Shown here: in pieces, positions 3,615-38,370 of the stretch
Position numbering within the stretch: position 1 is the stretch's first letter
Layout: every line of letters starts with the position of its first letter
From: Chiloscyllium plagiosum
Lineage: Eukaryota
Assembly (NCBI RefSeq): GCF_004010195.1
Contig: NC_057718.1
Coordinates: 43,842,280 to 43,880,649 of the forward strand
DNA length: 38,370 bases
Direction: 5' to 3'
Notes under the pieces: generated by a model
Seen by the model: the letters and a program-made list of their open reading frames with translations, nothing else
Databases searched by the model: none
What the model was told of the DNA's origin: nothing
Translations under genes and position numbers: made by a program

Positions 3615-3814
3615 TGATTTGGAGGTGCCGGTGTTGGACTGGGGTGTACAAAGTTAAAAATCACACAATACCCAGGTTAAAGTCCAACAAGTTTAATTGT
3701 AAGCACACTAGCTTTCGTTGCTCCGAAACTACCACCTGATGAAGGAGTGACACTCTGAAAGCTAGTGTGCTTCCAATTAAACCTGTTGGTCTATAACCTG
3801 GTGTTGTGATTTTT
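3615..3814 (+). mobile_element. Fold-back non-autonomous PLE derivative (family B) with hammerhead core
   Basis: Inverted arms ~3654-3717 / ~3756-3817; 12-bp TSD aacaagaaacta (3603-3614, 3815-3826). Confidence 0.8.
3733..3767 (+). ncRNA. Minimal type I hammerhead ribozyme motif
   Basis: CAC-CTGATGA-A-GGAG(TGACA)CTCT-GAAA-GCTA-GTG: stem I CAC/GTG, stem II, palindromic AGCT stem III, CUA cleavage triplet. Confidence 0.7.
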
Positions 3815-4740: not shown

Positions 4741-4982
4741 TGGAAGTGCCATGTTGGACTGGGGTAGACAAAGTTAAAAATCGCACACACCGGGTTGTAG
4801 TCCAACAGGTTTATTTGGAAGCACTAGCTTTTGGAATGCTGCTCCTTCATCAGATAACTAGTGGAGTAGGAATTCTGTGTCCAATAATGCTACTTCACTA
4901 GCTACCAGACGAAGGAGCAGCACTCCAAAAGCTTGTACTTCCAAATAAACCTGTTGGGTTATAACCTGGCGTCATGTGATTT
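4741..4982 (+). mobile_element. Fold-back PLE derivative (family B), degenerate hammerhead on each strand
   Basis: 16-bp TSD atcacattgaa(c/t)gatg (4725-4740, 4983-4998); inverted arms; minus-strand CTGATGAAGGAGCAGCATTCCAAAAGCTA near 4824-4852. Confidence 0.8.
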
Positions 4983-5660: not shown

Positions 5661-6208
5661 TCTTTTCTATAGAAGATTCCAATTCTATTATTTGAACATG
5701 ATTGCTGATATTATTGTTGCACCATGATATACATCACTATCTCATTACTCAATAATAACCAAACAGGACAAGACAGACACTATTGAAGCAAACTAGTCAG
5801 AAGCATTATCGAGTGAAAGTATAGGTGAATGATAGCAGATGTTTAATATTGAATTCACTTTATTGCAGAATAAATATATATGCCCTAAGGCAAGAAGTCG
5901 ACTTACCAAATAAAACTGCTTTTGTCAACAAAACAAGTAAGACATGACCCAATTAAAGAAAAGAACATGCTGAAATGAAAAGAATAGAATATATCTACAG
6001 AAGTGGCAGAAATGTAACAGCAAAAGAAGGCAAAAAAGCAAGTCAGAGCTGAAAGAAGGATTATAGTGATTGGAACCAGCTGGATGTTGTTGAGTATAAG
6101 ATCCATGATTGGGCTTGTTAACCTGGCCCGATCAGGAAAGCCCGAGCTCACTAATGTAACCAGGAGATTAAGCACTACCGCTGTTTAAAAAAAACTGGAA
6201 TAGGAGAT

Positions 6209-6355
6209 CCATAAACAGGTCCAGGCAGCTTTGTGTCTTTCACTGTGTCTCACACCTGTGCGCACACACAACATGGGTGCTGGGGAAAAATAAGCACACG
6301 CAGTTAGGCGGTAGTGTGGGGTTGGTTTTTAAAAAAAAAAAGAATTTTTAAAAAA
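6209..6355 (+). mobile_element. Tx1-clade LINE 3' fragment, copy a (internally deleted)
   Basis: ccataaacaggtccaggcagc fused directly to the 3' UTR, hairpin and A-rich tail. Confidence 0.75.
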
Positions 6356-6368
6356 TGGAACATAAGAT

Positions 6369-6748
6369 CCATAAACAGGTCCAAACAGCAGGCTGTAGTG
6401 GGGGTCATTATGGCTAATTGCCTGCCCCCTTCCATGGTTACGTCTGTGCCCGGGTGCCGTGGAGAAGCAGCACGTGTTGTCAATCAACACCCTTGCGGTT
6501 TTCAGGGAGAGGTGGGCACTGCAGGGAATGGAGTGTTTTATTTCCCCATCCAATCTATTTTGATTTAATCCCTGTCCTCCCCTTCACTGTTTAATCACGC
6601 AGCATTGCCCTTTGATGAGAAGGGTGACTGTTTGTCACTGGCCACTTGGGTCTTTCCTTTCTTCCTGGTGGTGGAAATTGAATAAAGATTTATACACCTG
6701 TTGTCTTTCACTGTGTCTCACACCTACATACACACGACGTAAGAAAAA
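6369..6748 (+). mobile_element. Tx1-clade LINE 3' fragment, copy b
   Basis: INRSKQQAVVGVIMANCLP..SILI* ORF2 C-terminus plus 3' UTR with AATAAA. Confidence 0.8.
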
Positions 6749-6871
6749 ACCAGGAGAGATCAGGTGCAAAAGAAGTAACCAGGAGATTTAGAGTCTCCTC
6801 AGTTTAGAAACAAAAAGGTGTAACCAGGAAATTAAGCACTACCGCTGTTTAAAAAAATGTAACCAGGAGAT

Positions 6872-7286
6872 CTATAAACAGGTCCAGGCAGCGGGCCATG
6901 GAGGCGTTCATTATGGCCGATTGCCTGCCCCTCTTCCATGGTTAAGTCCATGCCTGGGTATCTCTGGAGAAGGAGCACACGGTGTCTACCACACTCTTGA
7001 GGTTTTCAGGGAGAGGTGGGCACCTCCAACTCTATTTTGATTTAATACCTGTCCTCCCCTTCACTGTTTGATCACGCAGCACTGCCCTTTGAGAAGGGCA
7101 CTGCTTGTCACAGGCCACTCGGGTGTTTCCTTTCTTCCTGGTGGTGAAATATAAATAAAGATTTACACACTTGTTGTTCTTCACTGTGTCTGACATTTGC
7201 ACACACGTGACATGGCTCTGGGGAAAATATAAACACTACTGTTATTAGGCAGTAGTGTGGGGGGAAATGAAATAAAGCAAAAAATA
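6872..7286 (+). mobile_element. Tx1-clade LINE 3' fragment, copy c
   Basis: Same unit, preceded by TGTAACCAGGAGAT (6858-6871) and followed by A-rich tail plus TATAACCAGGAGAT (7287-7300). Confidence 0.8.
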
Positions 7287-7452
7287 TATAACCAGGAGAT
7301 TTAGACTCTCCTCAGTTTAGGCGACTGACTATGTGCTGGATGCTACTGTTGGTTTCTGATTTTTTTGGGGGGAATCCCAATTCCTGAACTGGCTGATTTA
7401 TTTAGCCAGCTTGTTAACTGGTATTCCTTTAAAAAAAATGTAACCAGGAGAT

Positions 7453-7862
7453 CCATAAACAGGTCCAGGCAGCGGGTTGTGAAGGGGATCGTTATGGCTG
7501 ATTGCTTGCCTTTCTTCCATGGTTATATTCAGGTCTGGGTGTCCCTGGAGAAGGAGCACAAGGTGTAAACCAACACACTCGAGGTTTTCTCGGAGAGGCG
7601 GGCACCGCGGGATGTCGATTGTTTTATTTCCCCCCTCCAACTCTATTTTGATTTAGTCCCTTCCCTCCCTTTTCACTTTTTAATCACGCAGCATTGCCCT
7701 TTGATGTGAAGAGCACTGCTTGTCACTGGCCATTCTGGTGTTTCCTTTCTTCCTGGTGGTGGAAATTGAATAAAGATTTATACACTTTGTGTCTTTCACT
7801 GTGTCTCACATCTGCACACACACAACATGGGCGCTGGGGAAAAATATAAGAACTACTGCTAA
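7453..7862 (+). mobile_element. Tx1-clade LINE 3' fragment, copy d
   Basis: INRSRQRVVKGIVMADCLPFFHGYIQVWVSLEKEH; preceded by TGTAACCAGGAGAT (7439-7452). Confidence 0.8.
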
Positions 7863-7981
7863 TGTTGGTTTCTGTCTTTTTGGGGAACCTGATTCTTAAA
7901 CTGACTGAATTATATAGTCAGTTTATTAACTGGTATTCCTTTTTATTGAAGACTGATTTCTAAACTGGTTGATTTACACAA

Positions 7982-8189
7982 TGTGTTTCAGGTGTATTTC
8001 AGTTCTCATTAGGGAACTGTTGCTTCACTGGCTGGTTACAGCCTGTGTGTTAATCTTTTCTGTCAGGAATGTCAGGGGTTCTGTTCACTCAAAGTTGGCT
8101 CTGAGGGAGCTGGATCAGTGTCAGAGACTTCCACATGGAGATAAAAGGTGACTTGATAACAGGATATCAGCCTCTGTGGAGTTCTTTCA
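7982..8189 (+). mobile_element. Related short LTR-like element
   Basis: TG start; 3' end ataaaaggtgacttgataacaggatatcagcctctgtggagttctttca homologous to 9972-10021 and 23606-23651. Confidence 0.55.
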
Positions 8190-8199
8190 ATGCCAGTTC

Positions 8200-8412
8200 C
8201 ACCATATTCATTAATTTGGTCCTGCCTGTCCATCCTATTAGACTTATTTAACATTGACTTTGTCCTCAAATCACCCCACATACTGACCAACTACTCTTTC
8301 AAATACCCATCACACTAGTTTAAACCTTCCTGATTGGCACTAGGAAACCTCCCTGCTAGTGTGTCTCTAGTTTAGGTGCAACTGGTTCTTCTTGTACAGG
8401 TCCCACCTGCCC
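8200..8412 (-). mobile_element. CR1 ORF1 (esterase-like) fragment
   Basis: Minus strand GRWDLYKKNQLHL matches the W.RWDLYK.DGLHL motif. Confidence 0.75.
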
Positions 8413-8450
8413 TTTAAGTAGCACTTTTAAAAGAAATGTAACCAGGAGAT

Positions 8451-8930
8451 CCATGAACCGGTCCAGGCAGTGGGCCATGGAGGGGGTCATTATGGCAGAT
8501 TGCCTGCCCCTCTTCTGCAGTTACATTCGGGCCCAGGTGTCCTTGGAGAAGGAGCACCCAGTGTCCACCACACCCTTGAGAGTTTCAGGGAGAGGTGGGT
8601 ACCGCGCGGTGTGGAGTGCATTATTTCCCCCTCCAACTCTATTTGATTTAACCCTTGCCCTCCCCTTCACTTTTTAAATCACACAGCATTGCCCTTCGAT
8701 GTGAAGGGAACTGCTTGTCACTGGCCACTCAGGTGTTTCCTTTTTTCCTGGAGGTGGAAACTGAATAAAGAATGATACACCTGTTGTCTTCCACTGCGTC
8801 TCACACCTGCGCATGCACAACATGGGTGCTGGGGGTAAAATAAGCACTACTGCTGTTAGGTGGTAGTGTGGGGGTTTTATAAAAATGAAAAAGAAAAAAT
8901 GAAAAAAAGAGAAGAAAGATAAGAAAGACA
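8451..8930 (+). mobile_element. Tx1-clade LINE 3' fragment, copy e
   Basis: NRSRQWAMEGVIMADCLPLFCSYIRAQVSLEKEH; long A-rich tail; preceded by TGTAACCAGGAGAT (8437-8450). Confidence 0.8.
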
Positions 8931-9435
8931 ACATGAACAGAGATGTAGCATCTCCTCAGTTCAGGGGGCTGACTCTGAGCTGGCTGGCCATACAGCCAGT
9001 GTGTACTGCTGCTGTTGGTTCAGATGAAGAGGAGGTTTTTTGTTGCCCCGCTGTCTGAAGAAGACATTTGATTTTGAGTTTTCTTTATTATTTTTTGTGT
9101 TTGTCTTTCTGATTTTCTTTCTATTTTATCCTTTAATTTGAGCTGTGTTCAGCTGCACAAGCAGCTAACACCACCACTGCTGCTGCAGCAGCCGCAGCCT
9201 AGGCCTGCTCCCACTGCTGTGTCCTGGGCCTCACCTACACCTGACAACTATTACTTCTGCCTGGGGCCTGCCGACACTGCTGCTGCCTTGGGCCCCACCC
9301 AGACATAAGCACTGTTGTTGCTGCCTGGAGCAGCAACTGTTGCTGCCTGCTGCTACTTGGGGCCTACCTCTACTGCTGCTGCCTGGGCCCCACCCAGACT
9401 TAAGGACTGTTTAAAAAAAAATGTAACCAGGAGAT

Positions 9436-9850
9436 CCATAAACAGGTCCAGGTAGTGGGCCATGGAGGGGGTCTTTATGACCAATTGCCCGCCTCCCTTC
9501 CACAGTTATGTTTGGGCCCAGGAACACATGGTGTCCACCGAGACCCTCAAGATTTTCAGGGAGAGGTCGGCACCGTGTGGTGTTGAGTTTCCCCCCTCCA
9601 ATTCTATTTTGGTTGAACTCCAGCTCTCCCATTCACTTTTTTGATCACTCAGCATTGCTCTTTATTGAGGAGGTCACTGCTTGTCACTGGCCACTTGGGG
9701 TTTCTTTTCTTCCTGTTGGTGGAATATAAATAAAAATTCCTACACTTGTTGTTCTTCACTGTGTCCTACACCTGCACACACAACACGGGTGCTGGGGAAA
9801 AATAAGCACTACCGCTGTTAGGCTGTAGTGTGGATAAAAAAGAAAAAAAA
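9436..9850 (+). mobile_element. Tx1-clade LINE 3' fragment, copy f
   Basis: EH.VSTETLKIFRERSAPCGVE; hairpin 9807-9830; A-tail; flanked by 9422-9435 and 9853-9866 copies of the 14-mer. Confidence 0.8.
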
Positions 9851-10434
9851 TAGATAACCAGGAGATTTAGACTCTTCTCGGAAAAGAAATATAACCAGAA
9901 AATGAGAATCTCCTCAGTTCATGAATTCACTCCAAGCTGGCTGGCCACAGCCAGTGTACTGTGCACAAGTAAATAAAGGGTGATTTGGTGACGGGATACC
10001 AGCTTCTGTGCAGTCATTTCAGAATACAAAATGAAATTTGCAAAGGATATCAAAACTAACACGATTCTTTACAAATATATTAGAGAAAAGGGACAATTTG
10101 AAATGGCTTCAGCTATTTTAACAGACTTGTTGAAAAATTGCTTTATATCCATCCTTACAGACAGACAAAGGACAATATAGCTAACAGTCCAAAGAATAAT
10201 GAGTCAAGAATTGGAGCACACTAAGGTTGATGTTAATTAAGTACTGAAAAAGGTAATGTACTAATAGCTGATAAATTCTTAGGAACTGACAGTTTATTTC
10301 TCAGGTGAGGAAAGTTGGTGAGGAAATTGCAGATTTATTTTTTGTCATAATCATCTAAAATTTTCTTGATTCAAGAATTGTCACTCTATATTGGAAAAAT
10401 GGAAATGTTACTCCATAAACCAAGAATGTTTTGT

Positions 10435-12081: not shown

Positions 12082-13372
12082 ATAAAACATAGAACATAGA
12101 ACAGAACAGTGCAGAACTGGCCCTTCGGCTCTCAGTATTGCGCCGACCTGTGAACTAATCTAACCTATCCCTCTACACTATCCCATCATCATCCAAGGAT
12201 TGTTTAAATCTCCCAAATGTGGCTGAGGTAATTACATTGGCAGGCAGGGTATTTCACGCCCGTACGACTCTCTGAGTAAAGAATCTGCCTCTGACATCTG
12301 TCTTAAATCTATCACCCCTCAATTTGTAGCTATGTCCCCTCATACAAGCTGAAATCATCATTCTAGGAAAAAGACATCCACTATCTATCCTATCCTCTGA
12401 TCATCTTGTATGTCTCTATCAAATTCCCTCTTAGCCTTCTTCTTTCCAATGAGAACAGGTTCAAGTCTCTCAGCCTTTCCTCATAAGACCTTCCTTCCAG
12501 ACCAGGCAACATCCTGGTAAATTTCCTCAGCACCTTTTCCAATACTTCCACATCCTTCCTGTAATGGGGCAACCAGAACTGTACACAATATTCAAGTGCA
12601 GCCGCACTAGCATTTTGTATAGTTGCAGCATGACATTACGGCCCTGGAACTCAATTCCTCTACCAATGCAACCTAACACACTATATGACTTCTTAACAGC
12701 ACTATCAACCTGGGTGGCAACTTTCGGGGATCGATGTACATGGACTCCAAGATCCCTCAACCCTCCACACTACCAAGAATCTTTCCATTGACCCAGTATT
12801 CTGCCTTCCTGTTATTCTTCCCAAAGTGAATCACCTCACATTTATCTGCAGTGAATTCCATTTGCCACCCCTCAGCCCAATTCTGCAGATTACCCAATTC
12901 CCCCTGCAACCTTTTTCCACACTGTCCACTACTCCAGCGACTTTAGTGGCAACTTACTAACCCATTCACCTATGCCTGCGTCCTAGTCATTTATAAAAAT
13001 GACAAACAACAGTGGTCCCAAAACAGATCCTTGTGACACACCACTAGCAACTGGACTCCAGGCTGAAAATTTTCCATCAACTACCACTCTCTGCCTTCTT
13101 ACAGAAAGCCAGTTTCTAATCCAAACTGCTAAATCACCCTCAATCCCATGCCTCTGCATTTTCTCCAACAGCCTACCATGTGGAACCTTATCAAATGCTT
13201 TACTGAAGTCCATGTACAACATGTCAACTGCCCTACCTTCATTCACATACTTGGTCATCTTCTCAAAAAACTCAATGAGGTTTGTAAGACATGACCTGCT
13301 CTTGACGAAATCATGTTGGCTATCTGCAATCAAATTGTTACTTGCTAGATGATTATGAATCCTATCATGAGC
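12082..13372 (-). mobile_element. CR1 LINE, RT region to 3' tail
   Basis: ORFs [46 protein letters not shown]; tandem tail catagaa at 12088-12101. Confidence 0.97.
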
Positions 13373-13544
13373 CATGGGGGAGTTCTAAATAGATAATTTT
13401 AAAGGTTTTGCTAACTTTACATGTTATAATGTAACATGTCATAAGTTAAGCATGTTTTTGATGCAATGATTGTTAGGGTTTGTTTAGTAAAGGTAAATAA
13501 CAATTAAATTGACCAGATTTGACCAAATTGACTGGTATAGGTCT

Positions 13545-15355
13545 GAGGCAATGGACAAGCTGCTATATGACAGCTTGGAGATTGTGGACTGGTCCATACT
13601 CAAGAACTCAGCAGCCAGCTTAATGAGTATGTCACAGACTTCACCAGTAAGTGTGTAGAGGACTGCCTGCCAAAGAAGTTAATCAGAGTGTTCCTCAATC
13701 AAAAACAATGGATGAATCAGAAAATCCACTTCCTACTGAAATCCAGGTCTGAGGCATTCATGTCAGGTGACCCTGACCTATACAGGAAATCTAGGTACGC
13801 AGAACCATCAAGGATGCCAGAATAAACTAGAATCCCAGACTAAGTACACAATCAGACGTCAACTGTGGCAAGGTTTACATGATATAAAGGGCTACAAAGT
13901 GAAGCCAGGTAGAGTCACTGATAACAATGCATCTCTCCCTGATAAGCTCAATGTATTCTCTGCTCATTTTAAACAGTGAAATTATGTCACCTGTCCCAGC
14001 AGCCGTGGGTGCATCTGTACCCACGGGCACCACCACAGACGTCAGATCAGCCTCCTTGAGGGTGAATCCATGGAAAGCGACTGGCCTGGATGGAATCCCC
14101 ACCGTGCACTCAGATCCAATGCAAACCAGTTGGCAGGAGTATTTGTAGACATCTTTAACCTCTCCTTACTATATTGTGATGTTCCCACTTGCTTCAAGAA
14201 GACTGCTATCATCCCGGTGCCAAAGATAAATCAGGCAACCTGCCTTAATATCTACTGCATGGTGGCTCTGACATCCATCATTAAGAAGTGCTTTGAGAAG
14301 TTAATAATGGCACGCATCAATTCCAGCCTCCCAGGTTGCCTTAATCTGCTACAATTTGCCTATTGTCACAATTGGTCCATAGCAGACGCCATCTCCCTGG
14401 TCCTACATTCTGGATAACAATGAAACATGAGCCAGACTCCTATTTATAGACTTTAGTTCCACCTTCAACACCATAATTCTAATAAAACTCATCTCCAAAC
14501 TCCAAGACCTCGGACACTGCTCTGCCTGTTTGCAACTGGATCCTTGACTTCCTGACCCACAGATCACAATCAGGAAGGGTAGGTGACAACACCTTCCCCA
14601 CAGTGATCCTCATCACCAGTGCCGTGCAAGGCTGTATACTCAGCCCTTTACTATACTCCTTATACACTCACAACTAAGTAGCCAAATTCAGCTCTAACTC
14701 TATTTACAAATTTGCTGATGACACCACCACAGTGGATTGGATCTCAAACAATGACAAGACGGACTACAGGAAAAAGGTAGAGCGCTTAGTGGCATGGTAT
14801 AAAGACAACATTTTTCCCTCAGTATCAGCAAAATGGAGGAACTAGTCATCGACTTCGGGAAGTAGAGTGACTGTCTGTAGTGAATGGTGCCGAGGTGTAG
14901 GTAGTCATGAGCTTCAAGTTCCTAGGAGTAAATTTCACCAACGGTCTGTCCTGGTGTATCAATGCTACAGTCAAGAAATCACACCAACACCTCTACTTCC
15001 TCAGAAAGGTTAGGAAATTCAGAATGTCCACAATGACTCTTACCAAGGACCCCTCCCACACCAGTTATACTTTCTTCCACCCTCTTCCATCAGACAGAAG
15101 ATACAAAAGTTTGAAAATATGTACCACCAGACTTAAGCACAGCTTCTTCCCCACTGTTATCCGACTTAAGAATAGACCTTTCAAAAATTAGAGTTGATTT
15201 TCTCTGCATCTTCTCTGTAGCTGAAACATTGTATTCTGCTTTCTGCTCCATTACCCTAATGTGCTTAAGTAAGGTATGATTTGTCTGGTTAGCATGCAAA
15301 TCAGTACTTTTCACTGTATCTTGGTACCTGCAGCATTAATGAATCAAATCAAAAA
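13545..15355 (+). mobile_element. Rex1/Babar-type LINE, 5'-truncated, degenerate RT
   Basis: KATGLDGIP, QLAGVFVDIFNLSL..VPTCFKKTAIIPVPK, DFSSTFNTI, QGCILSPLLYSLYTH, KFADDTT, LYFLRK..KF; tail atcaaatcaaa. Confidence 0.85.
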
Positions 15356-16425: not shown

Positions 16426-16509
16426 TTCTAACCCAGTGATAAGAGAGCAACCATCGAATATAAGTGCGCATGAGATTGTTCTGCTAAAATAATTGAAAAG
16501 GAGTTCAGA

Positions 16510-17003
16510 CTGCAAATTGGAAAGGATGGAGAAAAGGTTTATAAGGGTGTTACCAGAACTGGAGGGTTTGAGTTATAAGAGAAGGGTGAATAGGCTGGGA
16601 CCATTTTCACTGAAGCATAGCGGCTTGAGGGGTGACCTTATAGAGGTTTACAAAATCATGAGGGGAATAGATAAGGTGAATAGCAGATGTCTTTCCCAAA
16701 GGTAGGGGAGTTTAAAACTAGATGGCATATTTTAAGGTGAGAAGAGGGATTTAAAACAGACCTGAGGTGCAATGTTTTCACAGTGGTTTGCATGTGGAAT
16801 GAACTGCCAGGGGCAGTGGTCGAGTGAGGTACAGTTACCACATATAAAAGCCATATGGACAGATACATGAATAACAAAGGTTTGGAGGGATATGGGGCAA
16901 ATGCAGGCAAATGGGATTAGTTTAGTTTGGGAAACCTGGTTGGTATGGATGAATTGGACCTGAAGGGTCTATTTTTGTGCTATGTGACTATATGACTCTA
17001 TGA
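16510..17003 (+). mobile_element. CR1 3' fragment
   Basis: LRGDLIEVYKIMRGIDKV; tail ctatgactctatga. Confidence 0.95.
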
Positions 17004-17669: not shown

Positions 17670-19040
17670 TGTAAAGTACTCAGGGAACTATAGGGTCATT
17701 GGTTTGACATCATCAATAAGAACACATTTTAAGGGCATCATTAACAATACAGTACATGATTCTTTAGATAGAGGGCTCATATTTGAGACTCTCAAAAACA
17801 GCTTCAAAGAGAGATGATGTATTACAAATCTGATTTCTTTTAAAAGAAGTCAGCATGATCTTAGGTGATTGAACCTTAGGCATTGTTTATTAAGCCTTCC
17901 AGAATTTCTGTTTCAGAAGGTATCGGGCAAGAGGCTTATCTAAATGATCAAAGCCTTTGTACGGTAATAGATTGTACTGGATTGAAATCTGCCTGGAAGG
18001 CTGTATGCAGATTTTGTTATAGGCAGATGTTGTTGCATAGCGAGCTCCAATGTACCAAAGGAAACAGTATTGGGTGTATTGGTCTTTTTTCACTATTCTG
18101 ATGAATTATGATAAATGTAGATGCAAGCTTTGAAGTGACATTAACATTTCTGAGATCATAGATGATACTTGCCTGCTTTAGGAAGATCTTGATGTGTTGA
18201 ATATTTGAACTCGTAGCTGCAAAATAATGTTTAACTTGGAAAAATGCAGTGCTCAGGGTGTTTGTTTTTATTCATTGCTGTATTCTGGGCATCACTACCT
18301 CGACAAGCATATCCATAATTGCCCTGGTGAAAGTGATGGTGAGCTGCCTTCTTGAACCAGTGCAGTCCTTGGGATGGAGGGACACCCAAATGCTTTTAGG
18401 AAGGGTGTTAAAATACCAATGAAGGCATGTGGCAACGTTAAAGTTAAATACAAATAAGCTTTCAGGGTAAGTCATTGAAGTAGGTGGAGAAAGGAAATGA
18501 TTTGGATGTTTTAATGTGTATATCTCTAAATGTTCATGAACAATGATGGAAAGTATTAGCTAGAAGTAAATGAGTACATCCAATTAACAATTGACTGTAA
18601 TGCAAAAATGACAAGACCATTGTCAGGCATCATTTAGAATATTATACACATAAAAACAAGAGCAGAAATTGCTGGAAAAACTCAGCAGGTCTGGCAGTAT
18701 TTGTGGAGAGAAATCAGAGTTATTGCTTTGGGTCCAGTGACCCTTCATTAGAGGGCCCTGTGTTCTGAGGAAGGATCACTGGACCCGAAATATTAACTGT
18801 GATTTCTCTCCACAGAATGCTGTCTGCTGAGTTTTTTTGTTTCATTTTGCAACAGTTCTGTTTTTGTTTCTGATAGCCAGCATCCACAGTTCTTTCAGTT
18901 TTTATTTAGAATATTACGTCTAGTTTGGACTTCTCCCATGGTTGATGATATTGAGGGTCTGGAAAGAATACAATGGAGAACTGCTAGGTTAACACATCAT
19001 TTGAACCATCTTAGTTATGAAGACTGAATAAAAGAGTTAG
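17670..19040 (+). mobile_element. Very old CR1/L2-like RT remnants with nested inserts
   Basis: NYRVIGLTS, C.TNL, HLEYY..VWT..DIE.LERIQ motifs. Confidence 0.5.
18645..18903 (-). mobile_element. Fold-back PLE derivative (family C) with hammerhead-like core
   Basis: 13-bp TSD atttagaatatta (18632-18644, 18904-18916); inverted arms; CTGAGGA-A-GGATC(ACTG)GACCC-GAAA at 18765-18790. Confidence 0.75.
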
Positions 19041-19431: not shown

Positions 19432-20143
19432 AGCCCAGATATACTCTTGACCGGTACGCCACTGTGCAGGTAACACTATTGGCTTAAAGATAAAACTTAG
19501 TGGCAATGATGGAAAACAGCTCCAGAACCGGAACCAGAGTCCAAGGCTGAAAAGAAGAGAATTTGAAAGCAAGACAAGACTTGGAAGGCTCTGGGGGGGA
19601 TAAAATAGGCTGGAAAAGGAGGAAACTCCAAAGGTAGGAGACGTATATTATACAGCTACTGCGCAAGATGACTCCATACAGTAGGGACACAAACTTTAAA
19701 AGATTTTGAAACCCAGTCTCAAATCGACAATACTCTGAAGAATAAAAAGACAGGATTGAACTCTTTAACAGCAAGAAGGAAAAACCCAAATGATCTCCCA
19801 GGTTAGTCAGGTGCAATATTCCACAGGAATAACAACTGCGGTAAAAACTTTACCATGACCTCAATGACTTTACAATGCAGAAGGCCTACAACAAAGCCAG
19901 AGGTGGGAAATTTGGAAGTGGCTGTGATGTTCAATATAATAGCTGCAGGCTTACATGAGAAGTAATAGCATCATCAAGTCAATGCAATTTTTCATGCCAT
20001 AGCTTCAGAAGCTGGCGCTGTGGAGTATGCTACATTGATTAGTTTAGCCACGAAAGACATTTAGTGAGAGAACAGGTGAGATTAAATCAGAGGTCTAAGT
20101 ATTTGGGAGAGTCAATCAATGTCTTTTTAGTAGATGTTTAACA

Positions 20144-20712
20144 TAGAGTCATAGAGATGTACAGCATGGAAACAGACCCTTTGGTCCAACTTGTCCATGC
20201 CAACCAGATATCCTATATTAATCTAGTTCCATTTGGCATCACTTAGCCCATATCCCTTTAAACCCTTCCTATTCATATATCCATCCAGATGCCTTTTAAA
20301 TGTTGTAATTGTACCAGCCTCCACCACTTCCTCTGGCAACTTATTCCATACACATACCACCCTCTGCATGAAAAAGTTGCCCCTTAGATCCCTTTTAAAT
20401 CTTTCCCCTCTCACCTTAAACAAATGCCCTCTAGTTCTGGACTCCCTCACCCCAGAGAAAAGACCTTGTCTATTTATCCTATTCTTGCCCCTCATGATTT
20501 TATAAATCTCTTTAAGTTCACCTCTCAGGCTCTGATGCTTCAGGGAAAAACAGTCCCAGCCTATTCAGCCTCTCCCTATTGCTCAAACCCTCCAACCCTG
20601 GCAACATGCTTGTAAATCTTTTCTGAACCCTTTCAAGTTTCTAATCTAATCTAATCTAATCTAATCTAATCTAATCTAAATCTTTTCTGAACCCTTTCAA
20701 GTTTCACAATAT
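20144..20712 (-). mobile_element. CR1 3' fragment inserted in Gypsy gag
   Basis: TRGHLFKVRGERFKRDLRGNFFMQRVV..WN.LP; tail catagagtcatagag. Confidence 0.97.
20642..20676 (+). repeat. (TAATC)7 microsatellite flanked by a perfect 29-bp direct repeat
   Basis: taaatcttttctgaaccctttcaagtttc at 20613-20641 and 20677-20705. Confidence 0.95.
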
Positions 20713-23312: not shown

Positions 23313-24490
23313 GATAGAGTCATATATCATGGAAACAGACCCTTCAGTCCAACTAGTCCATGCTGACCAGGTTCCTAAAGTAAATTAGTCCCACCTGCCA
23401 GTTTTTGACCCATATCCCTCCAAACATTCCTCTAGTGATTTATCCAGGTAGATATAGTTGACTATGAGATCCTTGATTGGGGTTGTAAATCTGGGCCAGT
23501 CAGGAAACCTTGATTGACCAATATAAACAGGGAATTTGGAATCTCCTCAGCCCAGGAGACTGGCTTGGAGCTGGCTAGCCACAGCCAGTGTACTGTGTAC
23601 TGCGTATAAGTGACCTGGTGGCAGAATACCAGCCTCTGTGCAGTTATTTCAATTTCCTATTCATGTGTTTATCCAAATACCTTTTAAATGTTGCAACTGT
23701 ACCTGCATCTGCCACTTCCTCTGGCAGGTCATTCCACACACAAACCACTCTCTGTGTAAAAGAAGTTGCCCCTCATATCCTTTTTAAATCTTTCTCCTCT
23801 CAACGCTACTTTGAACACCCCCACCTTAGGAAAAGACCTTTGCTATTCACCTTTTCTATGCCCCTCATGATGTTATAAACCTCCAAAAGGTCACCCCTCA
23901 ACCTCCTACACTCTAGTGAGAAAGGTCCCAGCCTTTTCAGTTTGTTTTTATAATTTAAACCCTCAATTCTGAGCAAATACCTGGTAAATCTTTTCTGAAC
24001 TCCCTCTAGTTTAATAATATCTTTCCTATAACAGGCAGACCAGAACTGGACACAGTATTTCAGAAGAAGCCTCAACAACATCTTATACAAACTCAACATG
24101 ACATCCCAACTCCTATACTCAAAGGTTTAGCAATGAAGGTAAGCATGCTAAATGCCCCCTTAACCACCCTGTCTACCTATGATGCAAATATAAAAGAATT
24201 AAGTACCTTTATCCCTTGATCTCTGTTCTACAACACTACTAAGGGTCCTACCATTAATTGTATAAATCCTGCCCTTGTTTGTTTTACCAAAATGCAGTAG
24301 CTCACGTTTATCCAAATTAAATTCTATTCACCACTCCTCAGCCCATTGACCCAATTGATGAAGTCTTTTTGTAATCTTAGATAACCTTCATCACTGTCCT
24401 CTTTACCATCAGTTTTGGTGGCATCTGCAAACTTACTAGCTATGCCTCCTGTATTCTCATTGAAATTATTTATATAAATGGCAAAAAAAA
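23313..24490 (-). mobile_element. CR1 LINE RT to 3' tail
   Basis: SKFADATK, YCVQFWS, RRLRGDLLEVY; tail atagagtcata. Confidence 0.95.
23431..23651 (+). mobile_element. Uninterrupted short solo-LTR-like element inserted in CR1
   Basis: Splits CR1 at aaac.ttcc|tattc with a ttcc-like duplication; TATAAA at 23523; ends TTTCA; homologous to both ends of 6062-10021. Confidence 0.7.
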
Positions 24491-24742: not shown

Positions 24743-24949
24743 GGAGAAAGTGAGGACTGCAGATGCTGGAGATCAGAGCTGAAAAATGTGTTGCTGGAAA
24801 AGCGCAGCAGGTCAGGCAGCATCCAAGGAGCAGGAGAATCGACGTTTCGGGCATAAGCCTGAAGAAGGGCTTATGCCCAAAAAGTCGATTCTCCTGCTCC
24901 TTGGATGCTGCCTGACCTGCTGCGCTTTTCCAGCAACACATTTTTCAGG
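24743..24949 (+). mobile_element. Fold-back PLE derivative (family A), ~80-bp near-perfect hairpin with hammerhead-like centre
   Basis: 14-bp TSD ttaaattcaaaatg (24729-24742, 24950-24963); arms 24779-24858 / 24868-24948; CTGAAGA-A-GGGC(TTAT)GCCC-aAAA-aGTC at 24859-24886. Confidence 0.85.
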
Positions 24950-26040
24950 TTAAATTCAAAATGTCAACACTCTGAAATAGTAATTACATTTCTGGGACAC
25001 CTCAGCCAAAAATAAAGCATCATGGTTAATCCAAGGTATACAAATGCCATCAATGAATTTGACAGCACTAGAACGCTTAAGTAATGCACAACATTTCTTT
25101 GGCATGAGAAATCAAGTGACAAAGTTAATCTGAATTTAGCCAGAATGATGCAACGTAAAAGAGACCTTTAGAAAAAGGGCAAGCAATTGTTGTGCAGTCA
25201 AGGACAGACTACAACTTTTGAAAGGATGAAAGACAAGTTATTTTCTACTAATATTCTAGCACATTCCAGTTCAGGCTTATTCATTACAGTAGTCATAGAT
25301 ACATCATCCACAGGACTAGAAATAGTCCTTAAATAAATTCAATCTGACAGGAGATGAAATATTTTCCTTTTAAAATCAAGAGCATTGACTAAAAGACTGA
25401 ATCGAGTTTAGAGAAGGAAGCATTTGCAGTTACATGGGGATGTGAAAGATTCACATGGACTGAAATGTTAGGTCAAAACAGAACACAAACCTCTGGTAAC
25501 ATTGGGACTGAAATAAATCTCAACAATGCACCTATCCTTGCCAAGATTCAGGCTTAGGCTTATGAGGTGTGACAGTTATGTAATCTTTGTTGCAAACATG
25601 GCGTAAGTACTATCAGGCAGATGTTTGAATGCAGGAGTGTATGGAACAGAAAAAAGGTCTACATTTTTGGACAAAAAGTAAAATCTCATTGTATGATAAT
25701 CATAACATTTCCCTGGCAAGAGAAGGAAGACTTAAACAAATTTGTGCAGCTCAAAGGATGACAAGAGGTGCACAAAGGTCAGTCAACTCAGGCTATAAGG
25801 ATAGTTGTGCTATAGTCTGGTAGTTCAAGGGCTGAAAGGTACCAAAAGCAAAACCAACATGACAATAGGGGAAGATTTATTGGTAAAAGGTAGTTAGAAT
25901 GGATATAACACAGTCAATGCAAAAGGAAATTCTGCAGAAACTCCACAGAGACACCCAGGTACCACAAAGTGCTGAGTAAAAGAACAGGATGCAATGTGTT
26001 AGCCAGGCTTACATTTTGTCATGCCATACACAGCCAAGCA

Positions 26041-27819
26041 TCAAGAGTGTGGTGCTGGAAAAGCACAGCAGTTAGGCAGCATCCAAGGAGCAGGAGAATT
26101 GACGTTTCAGGCAAAAGCCCTTCATCGGGAATGAGGAGGTGAGCTGAAGGGGTGCTAAGATAAATAGGAGAGGAGCGGGGGGGGGGGGAGGGTAGCTGAG
26201 AGTGTGATAGGCAGATGGAGGTGGGGGTAATGGTGATAGGTCGGAGGAGAGATGGACTAGTAGGACAGGTCATGAGGGCGGTGCCAATTGTAAGTTTGGA
26301 TCTGGGATAAGGTGGGGGGAGGGGAAATAAGGAAACTGCTGAAATCCACATTAACACTGTGGGGTTGGAAGGTCTTGAGGCAGAAGATGAGGAGTACTTC
26401 CTGAGGCATCGGGTGGTTAGGGAGTGGTGATGGAGGAGACCCAGGACCTGCATGTCCTTGGCAGAGTGGGAGGGGGAGTTGAAGTGTTCAGCCACTGGGT
26501 GTTCAGCCATTGGTTGGTGCAGGTGTCACAGAGATGTTCTCTGAAGCATTCTGCAAGTAGGTGTCCTGTTCCCCAATATTAGAGGAGACTGCATTGGCAG
26601 CAATGAATACAGTAAGTGACATGTGTGGAAGGGTAGGTAAAACTCTGATGGATGTGGAAGGCTCCTTTGGGGCCTTGGACGGAGGTGAGGGGGAAGGTGT
26701 GGGCATATGTTTTGCAATTCCTGCGGTGACAGAGGAAGGTGCTGGGAGGGGATGGTGGGTTAGTGGGAGAGCGTGGACCTGACAATAGCATCATGGACAG
26801 AATGGTCTTTATGAAAAGTAGATAGGGGTGGGCAGGGAAATATATCTCTGGTGGTGGGGTCCATTTGTAGGTGGCGGAAACAGTGGAGGATGATACAGTG
26901 TATACGGAGGTTGGTGGGATGGAAGGTGAGGACCAGGGGGGTTTTGTCCTTGTTGCGGTTAGAGGGGTGGGGTTCAAGGGTGGACATGCGGGAAGTGGAT
27001 GAGATGCACTGGAGGGCATCATCAACCATGTGGAAGGGGAAATTGCATTTTTTAAAGAAGGAAGCCATCTGTTGTGTTCTGTGGTGGAACTGGTCCTCCT
27101 GGGAGCAGATGCAGCAAAAGTGGAGGAATTAGGAATAAGGGATAGCATTTTTACAGGAGGTAGGATGGGAGGAGATGTAGTTCAAGTAGCTGTGAGAGTC
27201 AGTGGGTTTGTAGACGATGTCCGTGTTGAGTCGGTCACTGTTGATGGAGATGGAGAAGTCCAGAGAGGGGAGGGAGGTGTCTGAGATGGTCCAAGTGAAC
27301 TTAAGGTCGGGTGGAATGTGTTGGTGAAGTTGATGAACTGTTCAACCTCCTTCTGGGAGCACAAGATGATGCTGATACAGTCATCAATGTAGCAGAGGAA
27401 AAGGTGGGCAAAATAGACTGTTCCACGTATCCGATAAAGAGGCAGGCATAGCTGGGGCCCATGTGGGTGACTATAGCTATGCTTTTTGTTTGGAGGAAGT
27501 GGGAGGATTCAAAGGAGAAATTATTGAGGGTGAGGACCAGTTCAGCCAAATGAATGAAAGTGTCAGTGGAAGAGTCCTGGTGGGGAAGTCGGGAGAGGAA
27601 GAAACGGAGGGCTTGGAGGCCCTCATCGTGCTGGATCTAGGTGTACAGGGACTGGATGTTTATGGTGAAGATGAGGCTTTTTGGGCCAGGGAAATGAAAG
27701 TCTTGGAGGAGGGAAGGGCGTGGGTGGTGTCCAGAATGAATGCAGGGAGTTCCTGGACCGGGGGAATAGGACAGTATCAAAGTATGTGGAGGTGAGTTCG
27801 GTCAAGCACCAAGCTCCAA
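26041..27819 (-). mobile_element. Penelope-like element (RT + GIY-YIG endonuclease), 5'-truncated and frameshifted
   Basis: ELVLTLNNFSF..LQTK..MGPSYACLF; PLVLTFHP; THVTYCIHCCQCSLL / IGE; PVAEHFNSPSH; terminus matches family A arms; 13-bp TSD acacagccaagca (26028-26040, 27820-27832). Confidence 0.93.
26097..26132 (-). ncRNA. Hammerhead motif in the PLE terminus (one core substitution)
   Basis: Minus strand ATTC-CcGATGA-A-GGGC(TTTT)GCCT-GAAA-CGTC; palindromic ACGT and GUC triplet. Confidence 0.6.
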
Positions 27820-28207
27820 ACACAGCCAAGCACCTTCAAAGACACTGATTACATCAAGATTTTCACAAAGGCAATAGGAAAGATTGGCAAATGAACTTGT
27901 TCATTTATAAAGGGAAGATGAGTTTAGTCCTAGTCAGCTGTTATCTGAGATGGATCAAAATGGCAAGATTTCATTCAGCCACAACACCCTGGTTTGTGAT
28001 AATAGTCTCCTGTAAGAACAGACAATGAACTACAATTTCTAAACAAGGATTTCAGGAACTTCACATTGGAAGCAGCCATCAATTAAGTCACAAGCTCTCC
28101 ATTTTGTCCTTAGACAAATAAAGAAACAGTTAAAGAAATCACGACTACAAAGTCACTGAATCATAAGAATTCAAGCTAACAATCAGCTCTACTTCCTTAC
28201 AGCATCA

Positions 28208-30010
28208 CATAGTCATCGAACTATACAGCACAGAAACACACCCTTCCGTCCAACTCATGCAAACCGATCAGATATCCTTAACTGATCTAGTCCCATTTGC
28301 CAGCATTTGGCCGATATCCCTCTAAAGCCCTCCTTTTCATGTACCCATCCAGATGCCTTTTAAATGCTGTTATTGTACCAGCTTCCATCACTTCCTCTGG
28401 CAGCTCATTCCAAGTACACACCACCCTTTATGTAAAAACATTGCCCCTCAGGTCTATTTTAAATCTTTCCTCTCTCAGCTTAAACCTATGTCCTTTAGTT
28501 TTGGACTCCCCTACCCGAGAAAAACCTCTTCAAAATAATCAAGTTAGGGAGACACAATTTCCCATGCACAAAGCCATGTTGACTATCCCTAATCCCGTGC
28601 CTTTCCAACTGCATATTAATCCTGTCCCTCAGAATCCCCTCCAACAACTCACCAACACTGTTGTCAGGCTACTGGTCGATAGTTTCTTTACCAGCTTTCT
28701 TAAATAATGGCACCATGTTAGCCAACCTCTAATCTTCCAGCACCTCACCCTTGGCTATCGATAATACAAATATCTCAGCAAGAGGCCCATTAATCTCTTC
28801 CCAAGTTCTGGGATACACTTGATCAGGTCCTGGGATTTATTTAACTTTATGCATTTTAAGACATCCAGAACCTCCTCTTCTGTGATATGGACATTTTTCA
28901 AGATATCTCTAGCTTGCATGTCTATCTCCAGAATAAATACTGACGTGAAATATTAATTTAGTATCTCATCCATCCCATGTGGCTCCACGTACGGGGCGGT
29001 ATGGTGGCTCAGTGGTTAGCTCTGCTGCCTCACAGCACAAGGGTCCTAGGTTCAATTCCAGCCTTAGGTGACTGTCTGTGTAGATTTTGCACATTCTTCC
29101 TGTGTCTGCATGGGTTTCCTCCCACAGTCCAAAGATGTGCAGGTTAGGTGAATTGGCCATGCTAAATTGCCCATAGAGTTAGGTGCATTAGTGAGAGGGA
29201 AATGGATCTGGGTGGGTTACTCTTTGGAGGGTCGGTTTGGACTTGTTGGGCCGAAGGGCCTGTTTCCACACTGCAGGTAATCTAATCAATATAGATGGGC
29301 TTGTTGATTTTACAGACACCAATTCTCTCCCTAGTTATTCTTATGCCCTTAATGTATTTCTAAAATCTCTTTGTATTCTCCTTAAACCTATTTGCCAAAA
29401 CTATCTTATGTCCTTTGACCTTCTGATTTCCTTTTGGAGTATATTCCTACTGCCCTTATCCTCCTCTAGGAATTCATGATCCCAGCTGTCTATACCCGAC
29501 ATATCCCTCCTTCCTTTTCTTGACTAGAGCCTCAATTTTTTTGTCATCCAGCATTCCCTATACTTACCAATCTTGCTCTTTGCACTAACAGGAACATACT
29601 GTCCCTGAACTCTCTATCTCATCTTTGAAGTCCTTCCACTTTCCAACCATCTCTTTATCTGCATATAGTCTCTTCGAATCGACGTTTGAAAGTTCCTGCC
29701 TAATACCATCAAAATTGGCCTTACTCCAATTTAGAACTTTAACTTTTAAATCAGGTCTACCCTTTTCCATAGCTATCTTAAAACTGATAGAATTATGATG
29801 ACTGACCCCAATGTTTTTCCTCACTGACAACTCAATCACTTGCCCTGCCTTATTTTCCAGAGAAAGTCACTTTGGGCTCATTTTTGAGAAGATACATCCA
29901 CATACGGAGTCAGAAAATGTTCTTGTACACGCTTAGCAAATTACTCTCCATCCAAGATCTTAACACAATGGCTGTCCCAGTCTATGTTTGAAAAGGTAAT
30001 ATCCCCTACC
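28208..30010 (-). mobile_element. CR1 LINE (endonuclease/linker to 3' tail, with internal deletions) inserted in Gypsy integrase
   Basis: SHHNSISFKI..LNWSKANFDGIRQEL; 3' UTR at 28208-28330. Confidence 0.93.
28993..29287 (+). mobile_element. HE1-type V-SINE (tRNA-derived)
   Basis: Box A TGGCTCAGTGG, box B GGTTCAATTCC, V-domain tttgcacattct..tgggtttcc, CR1-like tail ending taatctaatc. Confidence 0.9.
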
Positions 30011-37619: not shown

Positions 37620-38370
37620 TAGAGTCATAGTGTCATAGAGATGTACAGCATGGAAACAGAACCTTTGTCCAACCCGTCCATGCCGACCAGATATCCCAAC
37701 CCAATCTAGTCCCAACTGCCAGCACCCGGCCCATATCCCTCCAAACCCTTCCTATTCATATACCCATCCAGATGCCTCTTAAATGTTGCAATTGTACTGG
37801 CCTCCACCACGTCCTCTGGCAGCTCATTCCATACATCTACCACCCTCTGTGTGAAAACGTTGCCCCCTAGGTCTCTTTTATATCTTTCCCCCTCACCCTA
37901 AACGTATGCCCACTAGTTATGGACTCCCTGAGCCCAGGGTAAAGACTTTGTCTATTTATCCTATCCATGCCCCTCATAATTTTTTAAACCTCTAAAAGGT
38001 CACCCTTCAGCCTCCAACACCCCAGGGAAAACAGCCCCAGCCTGTTCAGCCTCTCCCGATAGCTCAAATCCTCCAACCCAGGCAACATCCTTGTAAATCT
38101 TTTCTGAACCCTTTCAAGTTTCATGACATCCTTCCGATAGGAAGGAAGGAGACCAGAATTGCACGCAATATTCCAACAGTGGCCTAACCAATGTCCTGTA
38201 CAGCTGCAACATGACCTCCCAACTCCTGCACTCGATACTCCGACCAATAAAAGAAAGCATACAAAATGCCTTCTTCACTATCCTATCTACCTACGACTCC
38301 ACTTTCAAGGAGCTATGAACCTGCACTCCAAGGTCTCTTTGTTCAGTAACACTCCCTAGGACTTTACCAT
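37620..38370 (-). mobile_element. CR1 3' fragment running off the window end
   Basis: LERVQKRFTRMLPGLEDLSYRERLNRLGLFSL; tail agagtcatagtgtcatagag. Confidence 0.97.

Follow-up and report, generated by a model that had tools for sequence, protein, structure and literature searches.

Sequence-specific long interspersed nuclear elements (LINEs) of the endonuclease type are few, and they are of interest as models of aimed insertion. Here we describe an array in the shark Chiloscyllium plagiosum, located at 6062-10021 of a 38,370-base stretch of contig NC_057718.1 (the window; all positions are counted from its first base), in which 3′ fragments of a Tx1-type LINE are stacked within a short type of long terminal repeat (LTR). 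The endonuclease of Tx1L, which resides in Tx1D of Xenopus laevis, nicks DNA in a sequence-specific manner (PMC1950540). In crocodilians, Tx1 families prefer Mariner, Harbinger and LTR retrotransposons, among them Tx1-8_Crp and Tx1-4_AMi with a preference for LTR retrotransposons, and a family is considered target specific when over 20% of its flanks are of one kind (Kojima 2015, PMC4494074). In the same study, SINEU-3 copies form tandem stacks about a duplicated 16-nt word, the flanking target was considered a possible source of transcription, and the author weighed "hitchhiking" against independent insertion (PMC4494074). The principle that target-preferring Tx1 LINEs enter other transposons is already known, and the array copy described here is old and decayed.

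The shark array resembles Tx1-8_Crp and Tx1-4_AMi in that a Tx1 family appears to prefer LTR elements. Its site is a TATA-like motif, whereas the main text of PMC4494074 gives no position within the LTR, which the supplement may give. An earlier reading made from the letters of the window (the sequence-only reading) had not recognised the kind of target. This holds only in part: a preference for LTRs is already found in crocodilian Tx1 families (PMC4494074), but the literature searched, a weak test with Repbase and most subscription journals outside it, described neither a shark Tx1 sitting at an LTR's TATA-like site nor a LINE with a fixed point of truncation. Similarly, SINEU-3 and Tx1-Mar in Mariner-N4_AMi share with the array short units of fixed length that a Tx1 has moved and that lie one after another around a duplication within a different transposon; for SINEU-3, read-through from the target has been proposed, and hitchhiking versus independent insertion is the same question as in the shark array. 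SINEU elements have heads derived from small nuclear RNA, whereas the shark unit is the bare end of the second open reading frame (ORF2) and the 3′ untranslated region (UTR), and its target is an LTR. A SINEU-like head derived from a small RNA was not found, with no Rfam family near threshold (the scan of 5900-10200 gave 2 weak matches, far below the gathering score). Tx1L is the nearest named full-length protein relative, reached via protein P0035 (41%), and its endonuclease is likewise aimed at another transposon; that target is a DNA transposon, however, and the shark family is known here without a full-length copy or endonuclease.

We give about even odds (a probability near 0.5) to the reading that the array is an old stack of six Tx1 3′ fragments at the TATA-like site of an LTR, re-copied from a truncated founder via read-through RNAs. 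That the Tx1 family prefers this LTR site at all is probable, and likelier than any single history of the stack.

A recurrent 14-mer at the TATA-like site of an LTR

At up to 2 mismatches, the 14-mer TGTAACCAGGAGAT has 9 matches in the window, all on the + strand and all inside 6155-9866. A mean of 0.55 matches is expected from shuffled windows, and 9 were reached in 0 of 100 shuffles. The sequence-only reading had counted at least ten copies, and nine of its ten named positions match at this threshold (one of them, placed at 6775, starts at 6774), while the tenth (9890) matches at 3 mismatches. Its further observation that the 14-mer usually follows an A-run is also borne out, as nine of the ten are preceded by an A-run or A-rich stretch; the copy at 6155 is preceded by native LTR sequence without an A-run. 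Three kinds of sequence follow the 14-mer, as had been described: a Tx1 fragment (4/10), an 18-nt mini end (2/10) and the continuation of the LTR (4/10).

An empty copy of the host LTR (type A) has, as claimed, a single equivalent site at its TATAAA: the 14 letters at 23522-23535 begin with TATAAA, and 10 of them agree with the 14-mer. The arms of the array align with the empty LTR in 79 of 104 identical columns on the left and 103 of 130 on the right, and the left-most array site aligns with 23522-23535, which supports its reading as the LTR's TATA-like site. The array's own flanking duplication matches at 3 of 4 letters only, so the two arms may come from different LTR copies. Type A shows the features of a solo LTR, namely dispersal, sharp ends, a TATA-like signal, AATAAA at 9972 and a short flanking duplication, and its 5′ ends are TA or TC, not TG; the window contains no LTR-linked internal region. 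In three contig sets, 351-378 contigs per run stop exactly at 10021 and their flanks are unrelated (agreement 0.34-0.35), as expected of a dispersed element with a sharp end.

A second LTR, type B, is longer than type A and ends alike (TTTCA). In the array it takes up 335 nt, with its own end at 8189; the piece at 7857-8189 is multi-copy (read depth 300-527) and 86 of 112 columns are identical to 9886-10021. In a contig of organism C, a Tx1 tail is joined to the TATA-equivalent site of type B at 8064. This joint consists of the LINE tail, 13 A-rich letters and the matching site of type B, and its depth is 260, compared with about 35 for single-copy pieces. It is the sole independent junction outside the locus and argues for a site preference beyond the array.

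Not all 14-mers need be marks of insertion. A joint from 7339 back to 7280 occurs in 92 reads of X19 and also in contigs of X5 and X10, and loose read ends accumulate before 7280 (952) and before 7284 (591). The reads show the 14-mer and its LTR continuation (7280-7339) repeated head to tail, as a 60-nt unit, in other parts of the genome, so that some 14-mers can be native LTR sequence. This 60-nt unit occurs at many genomic places, with joints going back 54-60 letters, in all three organisms for which contigs were compared, and it is an LTR subfamily or a satellite with a repeated TATA-like region.

Tx1 identity of the inserts and authenticity of the locus

The inserts comprise five long units, U1-U5 (370-430 nt), and U0, which is internally deleted; each unit encodes the decayed end of a protein, behind which lie a UTR containing AATAAA and a tail. 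That these are 3′ ends of a Tx1-type LINE, containing the C-terminus of ORF2 and the 3′ UTR, is supported via P0035, which leads to Tx1L, and by a joint alignment. The U3 protein shares 47% identity with P0035 over 60 amino acids (E 2e-18). P0035 in turn has RVT_1 and zf-RVT matches, both under the curated cut-offs, and is 41% identical to Xenopus Tx1L ORF2 over 99% of its length; in the joint alignment of the fragment, the intermediates and Tx1L, the fragment is placed at the C-terminus of Tx1L. A first protein search with the 60-amino-acid fragment gave no match, and Pfam gave no family in the fragments themselves. A HMMER search with a 42-residue query gave 32 matches, 10 of which were looked up: 8 are whale-shark gene models, 1 is from a sawshark and 1 is an unrelated false match (P0011). 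Pattern scans had 0 matches in viral contigs, metagenomes and prokaryote genomes, and P0035 used as a protein query gave 0 loci in two sets of candidate stretches (3 and 167).

Reads of the same species extend the units on both sides. At the first base of U4 (8451), 712 reads depart from the reference (agreement 0.93) and continue the ORF2 frame as LLLGLAKL, and past the U4 tail (8876), 865 reads continue into poly(A). The units are thus 5′-truncated ends of a Tx1-type LINE, and longer copies of it are common. Read depth summed across the five UTRs reaches about 5,400, compared with 0 over the unique right flank, which indicates a Tx1 family of thousands of copies. Traits of the Tx1 clade are present: ORF2 homology to Tx1L (via intermediates), a poly(A) 3′ end and 5′-truncated copies. 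The LINE tail at 8845-8870 in U4 folds as an 11-bp hairpin (z -2.9), which is significant in one of the three copies folded, and both mini ends retain only the 5′ arm of this hairpin and part of the loop.

The fixed start of the unit and its LTR-like terminal letters (it begins with TGT and has ACAACA then TGG near the end, with the A-run as a purine tract) would also suit the terminal repeat of a miniature LTR element (a terminal-repeat retrotransposon in miniature, TRIM) in a tandem array. But what the unit encodes is the C-terminal end of a LINE ORF2, the reads continue into ORF2 upstream and into poly(A) downstream, and the 14-mer at its head comes from the middle of a different LTR. The miniature element is largely refuted by these data, and we hold it to be very improbable.

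The five long copies differ pairwise by 16-23%, and contigs of three species span several junctions. Those of organism A match 5900-6257, 8101-8489, 8950-9158, 9138-9443, 9423-9661 and 9975-10200 with 0-1 differences, and include the left arm as far as the start of U0 and both the 8437 and 9422 junctions. In organism C, contigs cover 5901-6257 (8 differences, 3 gaps) and 9195-9646, and in organism B 8245-8491 and 9362-9695. Since junctions are common to three species, the stack is old and no assembly artefact. Among the pieces listed (24 of some 90,000), none spans the whole array and 6257-8101 is not bridged by near-identical ones, which is what an artefact could point to, yet the divergence between copies and the same junctions in organisms B and C make it the least probable of all readings; even taken together, the artefact and the miniature LTR element carry a very slight probability.

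Histories of the stack

All six Tx1 fragments (U0-U5) begin at one identical base, directly behind a copy of the site, which independent truncations would not give; the sequence-only reading had overlooked this common start. Each of the six sites ahead of the fragments is preceded by TTT and an A-run of 6-9, whereas the tails behind U2, U4 and U5 are far less uniform (19-52 nt), so that the A-run looks copied and not freshly made. Furthermore, there are two types of site, a TGTAACC-type ahead of inserts and an A-type at 7287, 9853 and 9890. At U2 and at U5 the left site is of the TGTAACC-type and the right site of the A-type, which is not what a fresh duplication gives and suggests that sites were carried in. 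Like flanking copies are present only when the inserts are read between the TGTAACC-type sites (6858-7439-8437-9422), and not for U2 or U5 alone, and some 14-mers lie within carried-in LTR sequence and are not duplications. The proposal that every 14-mer is a duplication from an independent insertion finds no support in that form: the common 5′ base, the uniform A-runs, the unlike sites of U2 and U5 and the 60-nt unit found elsewhere all speak against it, and independence of each insertion is too simple a history.

The history that we favour starts from several target-primed insertions by a Tx1 family with a putative site-preferring endonuclease. The enzyme would nick the bottom strand immediately to the left of the site, copy RNA there and leave a second copy of the site. 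Most units would be re-copies of one truncated founder already within LTR copies, not fresh truncations of long Tx1 RNA. Read-through RNAs from such donors would hold the fragment together with its A-tail, followed by the downstream site of the donor and a stretch of donor LTR or flank that varies in length (about 140-560 nt). Copying may end at the left 14-mer as the RNA is there matched to the target. Duplication would then probably involve a word of about 25 nt, made up of TTT, the A-run and the 14-mer, and not just the 14-mer. With TGTAACC-type sites taken as the borders, the mid-part of the array could be described as three inserts, each with a fragment, its own tail, a donor site and donor LTR or flank, and such inserts are what read-through RNAs from founder-bearing LTR copies would give. 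The right-hand neighbours of the fragments are of three different kinds of sequence, which a local template from 10022 onward cannot supply; the foreign pieces in the array are 335 nt of type B LTR, about 220 nt of other DNA and a 400-nt low-copy repeat. The tree of the five long copies is a star with 0 of 2 inner branches supported, and this star together with the differing right-hand pieces favours several RNA-based events.

The identical 5′ base in 6/6 fragments and the uniform A-runs ahead of them, shorter and more even than the tails behind U2, U4 and U5, could also be explained by one to three insertions followed by an old duplication or rearrangement, at the DNA level, of the block of TTT, A-run, site and fragment. 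The depth of the stack would then be no count of insertions, and the family may still prefer the site. Such duplication is consistent with the match between 6155-6229 and 6819-6892 (69/73 columns identical), with 7341-7430 being a duplicate of 7857-7942, with U3 joining the type B LTR as if by deletion from a U2-type arrangement, and with a mild excess of variants shared among copies (28 seen, 21 expected). However, the shared variants are mutually conflicting and no pair of copies is supported in the tree, the fragments are followed on the right by pieces of different kinds, among them a complete LTR end and its foreign flank, and the array is without a tandem period (Tandem Repeats Finder found none). 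We consider block duplication unlikely, if far from negligible.

A 10-mer similar to the target begins one base after the shared start, a point noticed post hoc. The 10-mer matches the empty LTR site at 9/10 in four copies, 10/10 in one (U2) and 7/10 in one, and a match of at least 9/10 is found at 3 of 67,922 background positions. This raises the question of a recurrent truncation hotspot, in which a look-alike of the target in ORF2 is where new DNA is nicked or captured, and standard-length copies arise repeatedly from long Tx1 RNA. The position of the start beside the look-alike, the star tree and the existence of long source copies (the 712 reads) would all agree with it. On the other hand, the look-alike need have acted only once, in the founder, the 10/10 match of U2 is a private change, and a hotspot leaves the uniform TTT and A-run and the unlike left and right sites unexplained. 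We regard it as improbable. Two other origins of the fixed start were tried and rejected. Deletion between the target and the internal look-alike would leave one motif, but the sequence has both in tandem, and a later insertion into the look-alike would set the A-run directly ahead of the start, without the 14-mer.

Several observations weigh against aimed insertion with re-copying from read-through RNAs. Direct BLASTP of the fragment against Tx1L was not significant, and neither an endonuclease sequence nor a full-length copy was recovered in the window. The fit of the star is borderline (P 0.06-0.07), and a pair of copies sharing a quarter of their decay remains compatible with the data. The 865 reads behind 8876 give a 30-letter poly(A) consensus and stop before the following sequence, and three carried pieces end in TTT without a nearby AATAAA. 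The depth arithmetic for the junction of 14-mer and fixed start elsewhere allows from none to about 1,000 reads. Finally, the 6/6 shared starts, the 69/73 block match and the TGGAA common to 6195 and 6356 fit local duplication equally well.

A wider reading would be that the Tx1 LINE homes to the LTR TATA site, carries a look-alike of its target in ORF2 and is cut short there, giving a standard 430-nt non-coding unit genome-wide that is re-mobilised with donor DNA by read-through from the LTR promoter. We put this forward tentatively and think it doubtful; if true, it would be a LINE that generates a non-autonomous partner for itself through its preference for a target. If aimed at the LTR promoter, this very abundant Tx1 family would add a new target, would shut down or co-opt the promoters of a competing element, and would offer thousands of natural events for mapping nick sites. 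The fixed 5′ end beside a look-alike of the target bears on a poorly understood step, the cutting and joining of LINE 5′ ends, and is a point that merits a genome-wide count.

Layout of the array and other repeats in the window

The features of the array, from left to right, and the empty LTR are collected in Table 1.

Table 1. Features of the Tx1 array and of the empty LTR in the window.
Feature	Position	Strand	Basis or remark
Type A LTR 5′ arm, to target site	6062..6154	+	79/104 columns vs empty copy; arm and flank spanned by contigs of organisms A, B and C
Left-most target site, native LTR context, no A-run ahead	6155..6168	+	Exact 14-mer; aligns to TATA site of empty LTR
Mini end 1: 17 nt of LINE tail up to hairpin loop, then T and A8	6169..6194	+	Alignment to U5 tail
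Worn site ahead of U0	6195..6208	+	Sequence
U0: shared 5′ start, internal deletion after about 21 nt, tail, A-rich end	6209..6355	+	
Worn site ahead of U1; TGGAA change common with 6195	6356..6368	+	Sequence
U1: Tx1 ORF2 C-terminus and 3′ UTR, without tail	6369..6737	+	
Site, 18 nt of LTR continuation, A-rich stretch	6774..6818	+	Read joints link to 60-nt unit 7280-7339
Site, mini end 2, A7, site	6819..6871	+	
U2: Tx1 fragment, tail, A-rich end	6872..7286	+	
A-type site (TATAACC) and LTR continuation; one copy of 60-nt unit	7287..7340	+	Joint 7339 to 7280
Type B LTR piece ending TTT and A8	7341..7438	+	73/86 columns identical to 7857-7942
Site and U3, tail cut at junction with type B sequence	7439..7858	+	P0035, 47% over 60 amino acids
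Type B LTR 3′ part, ends TTTCA	7857..8189	+	Multi-copy
Non-LTR, non-Tx1 DNA with antisense fragment of another repeat, worn mini-like end, A-run	8190..8436	+	Translation; X1 contig
Site, U4, 52-nt A-rich end	8437..8928	+	Reads into ORF2 and poly(A)
Worn site with LTR continuation as far as about 9002; low-copy repeat (400 nt) with TTT and A9 at its end	8929..9421	+	Depth 10-18
Site, U5, A-run	9422..9852	+	Orthologous contigs: organism B 9362-9695, organism C 9195-9646
Two A-type sites, 13 nt of LTR continuation and A-rich stretch between	9853..9903	+	
Type A LTR 3′ arm, AATAAA (9972), TTTCA end	9904..10021	+	Contig ends at 10021
14-mer copies, at most 2 mismatches	6155, 6774, 6819, 6858, 7287, 7439, 8437, 9422, 9853	+	
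Further worn 14-mer copies (n = 4)	about 6195, 6356, 6745, 8931		Sequence
Empty type A LTR	23431-23651	+	One site, 23522-23535; sits in another repeat; 5-bp near-duplication, 4/5 identical

Two of the foreign pieces have features of their own. The low-copy repeat at 9003-9411 consists of a T-rich part and a GC-rich part with a 63-nt internal duplication (9254-9316 and 9350-9411), the end of which resembles a mini end; the repeat could be the 5′ region of some element. The piece at 8190-8436 is covered by the X1 contig, which spans 8101-8489 with 0 differences, and 804 reads continue elsewhere behind 8412. On the - strand, 8300-8412 translates to GRWDLYKKNQLHLN, which we take to resemble the ORF1 esterase of CR1/L2 elements (a CR1-like ORF1 motif).

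Other repeats are found outside the array. One abundant LINE-like 3′ repeat is present in at least 6 pieces on both strands (1-98, 16502-16960, 20142-20641, 23314-24030, 28206-28505 and 37625-38139); one piece hosts the empty LTR and one ends at (TCTAA)8 (20640-20679). Decayed reading frames at 12983-13384, 13980-14417 and 26019-27795 are presumably reverse-transcriptase-like and belong to other retroelements. Short, near-perfect inverted pairs with spacers of 8-40 nt occur at 24779-24948 (81 nt at 98%), 4787-4972, 3672-3801 and 18702-18814, and they are likely to be the inverted ends of another family of mobile elements.

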